Below are positions 4,088 to 4,286 of a stretch of DNA of 4,354 bases, one piece after another. This DNA comes from a virus. Its lineage: Duplodnaviria > Heunggongvirae > Uroviricota > Caudoviricetes. The stretch's first letter is position 1. Each line of letters starts with the position of its first letter. The position numbers were made by a program, and so were the translations under genes. Location of the stretch: IMG/VR virus record IMGVR_UViG_2671180411_000005; one strand, given 5' to 3'. The notes beneath the pieces are model-generated. The model had not been told where the DNA came from. It was given only the letters and a program-made list of their open reading frames with translations, and did no database searches.

Positions 4088-4154
4088 GTTCTTTTTTTGT
4101 GGTGAAAGATGAGGCAAAATTATCGCGTAACATGCTAACAATGGAGTTTGTTTT

Positions 4155-4286
4155 GTGATAAAGCCATTTTTAATGACGGTTGCAATATTAACCTCTTGCT
4201 GTGCTCAGGCGAAAATACTAACAAATGAGGAGATTGTTTCACGATTTATTAGTAACGTTAAAACGGTGATGCTGCCAACTTACTGA
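4155..4286 (+). CDS. Small ORF with lipoprotein-like signal peptide, disrupted by IS1 at 4265 (the last 7 codons and the stop are IS1-encoded)
   Basis: GTG at 4155 preceded by GGAG (4143-4146) with an 8 nt spacer. It translates as MIKPFLMTVAILTSCCAQAKILTNEEIVSRFISNVKT, then VMLPTY and a stop from IS1 sequence. It has a basic n-region, a hydrophobic core and a lipobox-like L-T-S-C. It lies in an AT-rich segment that differs in composition from the tail genes. Confidence 0.3.
   Translation: MIKPFLMTVAILTSCCAQAKILTNEEIVSRFISNVKTVMLPTY

Follow-up and report, generated by a model that had tools for sequence, protein, structure and literature searches.

What is the short AT-rich segment that separates a tail tape-measure gene from the insertion element IS1 in a Caudoviricetes sequence, a phage gene in its own right or a piece of foreign DNA? 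The sequence analysed (IMG/VR record IMGVR_UViG_2671180411_000005; 4,354 nt, of which the whole is called the window here) carries this segment at positions 4088 to 4264. The initial annotation had seen in it the start of a secreted or lipidated protein, possibly encoded by a phage moron. Morons are defined as genes that are extra in comparison with related phages, that deviate in GC content, that have a terminator and a promoter of their own, and that are expressed from the repressed prophage (Juhala/Hendrix definition as given in PMC3594210). Our analysis indicates that positions 4088 to 4264 very probably belong to an accessory gene of the moron type, of which they comprise the leader and the first 37 codons. 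This gene was inactivated by IS1, and its intact product would act in the cell envelope.

Gene structure and the IS1 insertion

The segment has a GC content of 0.345, compared to a mean of 0.526 (standard deviation, 0.043; minimum, 0.429) for every 177-nt sub-window inside the tail genes (73 to 4087). None of these sub-windows was as AT-rich, and the sharp drop reported past the stop codon of the tape-measure open reading frame (ORF; TGA, 4085 to 4087) was thus borne out. The first 67 nt, read directly from the sequence, form an AT-rich leader (4088 to 4154, plus strand) with a ribosome-binding site (RBS), GGAG, at 4143 to 4146, which precedes a GTG codon at 4155 by 8 nt. Both elements lie exactly where the initial annotation had put them, and PGAP places the same GTG start. 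No earlier start is possible, since an in-frame TAA is found upstream at 4128 to 4130. Translation from the GTG gives MIKPFLMTVAILTSCCAQAKILTNEEIVSRFISNVKT, followed by the IS1-encoded residues VMLPTY and a stop codon. The ORF runs 6 codons into IS1 and ends at 4286, and the fusion ORF listed for the window (4155 to 4286, plus strand) thus encodes 43 amino acids (aa), 37 native residues plus VMLPTY.

Uninterrupted copies of the gene, for which a BLASTN search had been proposed, were found. Using megablast, we compared positions 4000 to 4264 with 5,426 complete E. coli genomes. The whole query was covered in 11 of them at 95.8 to 100% identity, and the full 160-aa gene could be recovered; 39 further E. 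coli records aligned with only the final ~79 nt of the tape-measure gene. In RefSeq, the gene is a 483-nt "hypothetical protein" in E. coli FDAARGOS_944 (locus L001) and AST215 (L002), with accession numbers WP_000594909 and WP_032245164. In both, the annotated coding sequence begins at the GTG equivalent to position 4155, encodes 160 aa and sits between "phage tail tape measure protein" and "DNA circularization protein." The window differs from L001 by 1 mismatch up to base 4264, and its 5' part of the gene (36 codons plus 2 nt; 4155 to 4264, plus strand) is 100% identical to L001 6156-6265, the start of that coding sequence. The full-length protein matches PHROG 5586 ("unknown function") over its full length (E = 1e-88). 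Over the 37 retained residues, the identity to WP_000594909 and WP_032245164 is 99 to 100%, which places the interrupted gene in the same family; in contrast to the PHROG 5586 members, the window retains no more than the 5'-terminal 23% of the gene, joined to IS1.

The intact gene is present in 11 plus 101 of the 5,426 complete E. coli genomes (~2%). It also occurs in Shigella, Salmonella, Yersinia and Pantoea, and one or more isolated phages carry it. When IMG/VR was scanned with a pattern, 38 viral contigs with a homologue (39 to 99% identity) were obtained, and a scan of genome contigs added two intact copies (Shigella flexneri SFBU1023 and E. coli ECMA0423) together with three spurious Firmicutes hits. 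An exhaustive phmmer search returned only 15 proteins, of which the distant homologues showed 25 to 31% identity (E = 4e-7 to 7e-5), and a profile search of a 5.8-billion-protein set revealed no new lineage and no named or annotated relative. Between clades, the proportion of nonsynonymous differences (pN) was 0.14 to 0.38 and that of synonymous differences (pS) 0.67 to 0.77, which points to purifying selection and to a real coding gene.

The ORF had been described as cut by IS1 at 4265, and the left inverted repeat of the element, GGTGATGCTGCCAACTTACTGAT, indeed starts there. The window holds the left junction and 90 nt of IS1 (4265 to 4354, plus strand; inverted repeat, 4265 to 4287) and stops inside the element. 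These 90 nt are 100% identical to the start of a 768-bp IS1 in the sibling locus L005, which ends in GGTGATGCTGCCAACTTACTGAT and GGTAATGACTCCAACTTATTGAT, carries a PF03400 (DDE_Tnp_IS1) ORF and has CGTTAAAAC on either side (6102-6110 and 6879-6887). The left copy of this 9-bp target-site duplication is present in the window at 4256 to 4264. With its length of 768 bp, its inverted repeats of ~23 bp and its 9-bp duplication, the L005 element has the features of a simple IS1 insertion, and L018 contains the same clean 768-bp insertion. At the same site, L006 carries two tandem IS1 copies 8 bp apart. Directly after IS1, both L005 and L006 continue with the remaining 3' portion of the gene, then the terminator and the circularization gene. 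In the genome studied here, the remaining 678 nt of IS1, CGTTAAAAC and then ATCTGCAGATAATGACG... up to the stop codon and the terminator GCCGCCAGAAATTGGCGGTTTTTTT are thus expected past position 4354. The tandem arrangement in L006 (4881-6424; GCA_000268045.1) may represent a dimer of IS1, or it may have arisen during assembly.

The initial annotation had also considered that the segment might be the edge of unrelated host DNA joined here by IS1. Indeed, the window ends in IS1, and insertion elements flank the prophage remnant on both sides, as might be seen if a non-coding spacer or unrelated chromosomal DNA had been placed there by an IS1-mediated rearrangement. However, the segment is contiguous with the tape-measure gene in all seven IMG/VR loci of clade 1 (L013 to L019, five of them free of IS1), as it is in the 11 E. 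coli genomes. Moreover, genome annotation treats it as coding, and comparisons between clades show it to be under purifying selection. For the sibling contigs, a junction with host DNA is refuted, since the same insertion is clean there: 9 bp of target are duplicated, and the gene resumes after IS1. For the window itself, such a junction is very unlikely, and a spacer or rearranged chromosomal DNA is hardly credible as an explanation of the segment.

In this genome the gene is a pseudogene, since the insertion leaves only the 43-aa fusion peptide; the 37 remaining codons, out of 160, correspond to the signal peptide described below and 18 to 22 mature residues. IS1 inserted after codon 36, duplicating CGTTAAAAC, and the truncated fusion product is presumably non-functional. 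The exact 43-aa peptide is recorded in two NCBI assemblies. The cluster to which the full-length protein belongs lists a single member of 43 residues, P0030 (EIQ42293.1 from Shigella sonnei 3233-85), which matches the window ORF in length. A 35-aa ORF that also starts with GTG lies on the minus strand at 4135 to 4242 and overlaps the gene. Homologues are known for the plus-strand protein only, the minus-strand product not having been searched, and we treated this frame as a chance ORF.

An optional cassette 3' of the tape-measure gene

We propose that SfV/phiP27-like prophages with Mu-type contractile tails sometimes carry this gene between the tape-measure gene and the DNA-circularization gene (Mu N/gp43-like). 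The comparison of this junction with related prophages, which the initial annotation had recommended, was informative. The cassette is absent from phage phiP27 and from E. coli ATCC 43886, where the circularization gene starts 15 nt after the tape-measure stop codon. Their flanking tail proteins are nevertheless 96 to 97% identical to those of L001, which carries ~600 bp at this position. The gene is thus an extra one between genes that are adjacent in relatives, present in some prophages and absent from others, and the alignments indicate that the cassette is an optional block of ~600 bp. Its position is fixed: the tape-measure gene precedes the homologue in 38/38 IMG/VR loci, and wherever a circularization gene was detected as well, the homologue was found between these two genes. 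A 9-nt stretch, TAACAATGG, is shared by the cassette leader and the junction of the cassette-free locus L004. It was considered as a deletion scar and dropped, as it is compatible with chance (E = 0.43).

The composition of the intact gene deviates from that of its neighbours in the same way as the window segment. Across 43 loci, the gene had a GC content of 0.34 to 0.41, whereas its flanks were at 0.45 to 0.58 (0.47 to 0.58 in the 38 IMG/VR loci), which puts the gene 12 to 20 points under the tail module. In every clade, the cassette also has its own terminator, a GC-rich hairpin and a T-run located 10 to 40 nt past the stop codon, as seen in L001, L007, L040 and L046 and, by eye, in L003, L045 and L047. 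The RBS of the circularization gene comes after this terminator, and cassette-free relatives have no such structure. In the present genome, the terminator lies beyond IS1 and outside the window.

Homologues were also found away from tail genes. On phage-plasmid-like contigs, the distant homologues P0019 and P0021 have genes for ParA, a CI-like repressor, IncFII RepA and PemIK as neighbours. In the case of P0017, a HIRAN-domain gene (L053 2387-2974) separates the homologue from a tape-measure gene, which suggests that the slot 3' of the tape-measure gene takes other cargo too. Since distant homologues sit on phage-plasmid-like contigs and one is found beyond a HIRAN gene, the gene travels as cargo and is untied to tail function. 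The homologues with 25 to 31% identity at L052 2919-3413 and L054 1-452 were observed next to ParA, a CI/S24-type repressor, IncFII RepA and a PemIK toxin-antitoxin, far from tail genes.

Export signal and possible lipidation

The initial annotation had described a basic n-region, a hydrophobic core and a lipobox-like L-T-S-C motif, and all three are present in the sequence. The signal peptide comprises codons 1 to 19 (4155 to 4211, plus strand), with an MIK n-region, the hydrophobic core PFLMTVAILTSCC and a terminal AQA, as delimited by alignment with the other clades. A candidate cut by signal peptidase I (SPI) follows codon 19, between 4211 and 4212 (AQA|K, residues 17-19/20). A signal peptide with n-, h- and c-regions was recognized in 15/15 N termini of the family, and the export signal is therefore a property of the family as a whole.

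Whether the protein is also lipidated is less clear. The lipobox rule (PROSITE PS51257) asks for [LVI][ASTVI][GAS]C with the Cys at positions 15 to 35, a K or R among the first 7 residues and an uncharged stretch before the Cys. The L-T-S-C motif, found by pattern match at codons 12 to 15 (4188 to 4199, plus strand), has Cys15 as the would-be lipidated residue. Together with K3 and the uncharged stretch, it fits this rule in a regular-expression test. Moreover, a 74%-identical Yersinia copy retains the motif with a double Cys (L-I-S-C-C) after correction of a frameshift in a run of A. The protein could thus be a true outer-membrane lipoprotein, processed by Lgt and LspA at L-T-S|C15, for which the anchor would be essential, for example in receptor masking as with T5 Llp or phi80 Cor. 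The anchor would probably be in the outer membrane, since residue +2 is a Cys and not an Asp.

However, the lipobox (L-T/I-S-C) is confined to the E. coli/Shigella/Yersinia clade. The Cys is missing in 11 representatives of other lineages (the 720R4 clade, L040, L045, L046, L047, P0011, P0012, P0014, P0017, P0019 and P0023), all of which have an x-x-A|K site aligned with AQA|K. The aligned sites read NSFA|K, TTFA|K, LAIA|K, ITLA|K, LALA|K, TVSA|K, PVFA|K and SLA|K, and A19 is invariant in alignment A1. AQA|K is kept in register in the E. coli clade, where the residue at -3 is A, T or V, and it is S in Yersinia; this is the restricted variation that an SPI site demands, and all four residues fit the -3/-1 rule. 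In addition, Cys15 is at the lower limit of the lipobox rule, P0014 has a lipobox-like VAAC (Cys at 9) that is due to chance, and no similarity to the Llp, Cor or Bor families was detected with Pfam.

The proposal of a secreted or lipidated protein therefore stands for the signal peptide, in the whole family, whereas its lipoprotein part is weakened, as the lipobox occurs in the closest clade only and an SPI site elsewhere. Lipidation would be at best a lineage-specific addition, judging from its distribution. Within the E. coli/Shigella/Yersinia clade, the motif leaves it slightly less than evenly probable, and we lean by a little against a lipoprotein whose function requires the anchor. The mature protein would be either soluble in the periplasm or lipid anchored, and the signal peptide appears to have switched between the SPI and SPII types within one family. 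T5 Llp, phi80/N15 Cor and lambda Bor resemble it in that they are small phage or prophage proteins whose signal peptide contains a lipobox and whose location is predicted to be the outer membrane or the periplasm. They differ in that the protein has no match to their Pfam families, its mature part is ~2x larger, and most members of its family are not lipoproteins.

In the Yersinia enterocolitica copy (L007 4975-5003), the first nine signal-peptide codons (ATGAAAAAACC...) are out of frame with the remainder. One extra A in the A6 run of L007 would restore MKKTYLLVFMMLISCC, and a sequencing error, a pseudogene or slipped-strand variation are all possible.

Predicted fold and candidate function

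Modelling of the full-length protein with AlphaFold2 from a 12-sequence alignment gave a mean predicted local distance difference test score (pLDDT) of 84.7 and a predicted template modelling score (pTM) of 0.78. The model shows a disordered signal peptide, a helix at residues 24 to 41 and eight beta-strands, and it predicts a generic 8-stranded beta-barrel. C57 and C150 are nearly invariant and, given this conservation, probably form a disulfide in the periplasm. The intact product would thus be a 160-aa pre-protein in which a Sec signal peptide is followed by a helix and then by an 8-stranded beta-barrel that contains the two conserved cysteines.

The protein could be a periplasmic lysozyme inhibitor of the MliC/PliC type (COG3895), guarding the lysogen from host lysozyme or from the muramidases of phages or type VI secretion systems. 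An S-A-S-G(A) peptide is common to both. However, it is not collinear with the cysteines, the SxSGAxY and K-G motifs are not in register, and the barrel is ~30 residues longer here and preceded by an extra N-terminal helix. Membership in this family was rejected, since the hhalign probability was 0.06, with no profile similarity and no match among PDB sequences, and we regard such an inhibitor as very improbable.

We propose instead that the intact protein would be made from the prophage and that it may be a binding or inhibitor protein of the envelope that shields the lysogen. The closest precedent is a moron of HK97, gene 15, which belongs to the tail operon, adjoins the tape-measure gene and codes for a protein of superinfection exclusion (Cumby et al. 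2012, as summarised in PMC3594210). Its product gp15, the original moron, stops DNA entry in a tail-dependent manner (PMC3594210). Both are extra tail-operon genes by the tape-measure gene that are absent in close relatives, with an odd GC content, a terminator of their own and an envelope-targeted product. The likeness is one of context, and gp15 is unlike the present protein in being an inner-membrane protein with a demonstrated promoter and exclusion phenotype. The protein described here is a Sec-exported, predicted beta-barrel encoded on the other side of the tape-measure gene, with no promoter detected. Since it is exported, since its gene behaves as cargo and since HK97 gp15 provides a precedent, we tentatively suggest that it might protect the lysogen, most plausibly by interfering with the entry of superinfecting phages, a role that by analogy is possible although rather unlikely. 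More speculatively still, it might be the founding member of a family of exported barrels of prophages and phage-plasmids. Such barrels would act in the periplasm, where they would block DNA delivery by incoming contractile-tailed phages or neutralise an enzyme directed at the envelope; in one enterobacterial lineage, a lipid-anchored form would have replaced the soluble one, and the slot between the tape-measure and circularization genes would be a hotspot for cargo.

Several observations weigh against an accessory moron that acts in the envelope. Since the window stops within IS1, it does not include the 3' half of the gene for this genome. Within clades, the ratio of nonsynonymous to synonymous substitution rates (dN/dS) is 0.4 to 0.8, a noisy value obtained from only 5 to 16 differences. 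Scanning for the sigma-70 consensus (at least 9 of 12 positions, a crude criterion that may miss weak or non-canonical promoters) revealed no promoter in the leaders of five clade representatives (L001, L003, L007, L040 and L046). The L001 leader, which is identical to that of the window, had 0 promoter-like sites versus 2.2 expected in shuffles. As no promoter was detected, the gene is perhaps transcribed only with the late tail operon. Furthermore, homologues of 40 to 50% identity occupy the same position with flanking genes that diverge in step, and the gene therefore looks like a long-resident gene of the module and less like a recent moron. Finally, Pfam and NCBIfam gave no match for the full-length protein, PADLOC-DB (models of known anti-phage defence) gave 0 families at E <= 1, a hidden Markov model search of PDB sequences returned only noise (E > 0.2), and Foldseek found nothing under E = 0.03 in PDB and BFVD. 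As the Pfam, NCBIfam, PADLOC and PDB searches came back empty, nothing ties the protein to a known exclusion or defence protein. A literature search by accession, phage name and topic found no paper on the gene.

The undetected promoter, the fixed position and a divergence that parallels that of the neighbouring tail genes down to ~40% identity would also be expected of a late gene of the tail or lysis programme. Such a gene would encode a periplasmic helper for tail function or egress, its terminator would tune the dosage of the baseplate genes, and it would not be a moron of lysogenic conversion. However, both the gene and the terminator are missing from phiP27 and from about 39 prophages of E. 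coli whose tail genes are near-identical, and since they do without it, the gene is dispensable for tail assembly. An export signal is needed by no tail component, the distant homologues are located by plasmid-maintenance and repressor genes, and the low GC content sets the gene apart from the module. We thus consider a late tail or lysis gene improbable. The moron proposal of the initial annotation is retained for the optional insertion, the deviant GC content, the own terminator and the signal peptide, and it is not supported for an own promoter, of which none was seen in the five representatives.

The family is catalogued, but none of the libraries searched assigns a function to it, despite a confident predicted fold, an export signal and a fixed address. 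An intact copy would be a cheap candidate for a superinfection-exclusion or envelope-protection screen. For the window itself, the finding matters little, as it adds one more IS1-inactivated gene to a decaying Shigella-type prophage.

The left neighbour of the cassette is the tail tape-measure gene (Mu gp42-like; 2364 to 4087, plus strand). This region is 99.8 to 100% identical to the annotated 649-aa genes of L001 and L005, both with PF10145. The gene appears split into two ORFs (2364-3233 and 3077-4087), and a 226-bp deletion with a frameshift was considered as the cause. This was rejected, since 22 N at 3048 to 3069 stand for 248 nt in relatives (compare L005 4668-4915) and explain the split. 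The N run is a masked stretch or an assembly gap, and a frameshift is excluded.

Positions 1 to ~70 of the window correspond to the right end of an IS3-family element, with HTH_Tnp_1 and rve ORFs in L005 494-1649. This element meets the prophage ~20 nt before the sheath gene, inside a DUF2635 gene. With the IS3-family end at the left and IS1 at the right, the tail segment is thus bracketed by insertion sequences on both sides. In Shigella flexneri SFBU1023, the 160-aa gene is intact, whereas the DNA-circularization gene is interrupted ~30 nt from its start by a divergent IS1 (L008 4561-5328; 91% identical), an independent hit in the same prophage region. In FDAARGOS_944, which is the best intact reference for the cassette, ISEc60 (IS4-like; L001 1037-2227) interrupts the tail sheath gene, and this prophage is therefore defective as well.
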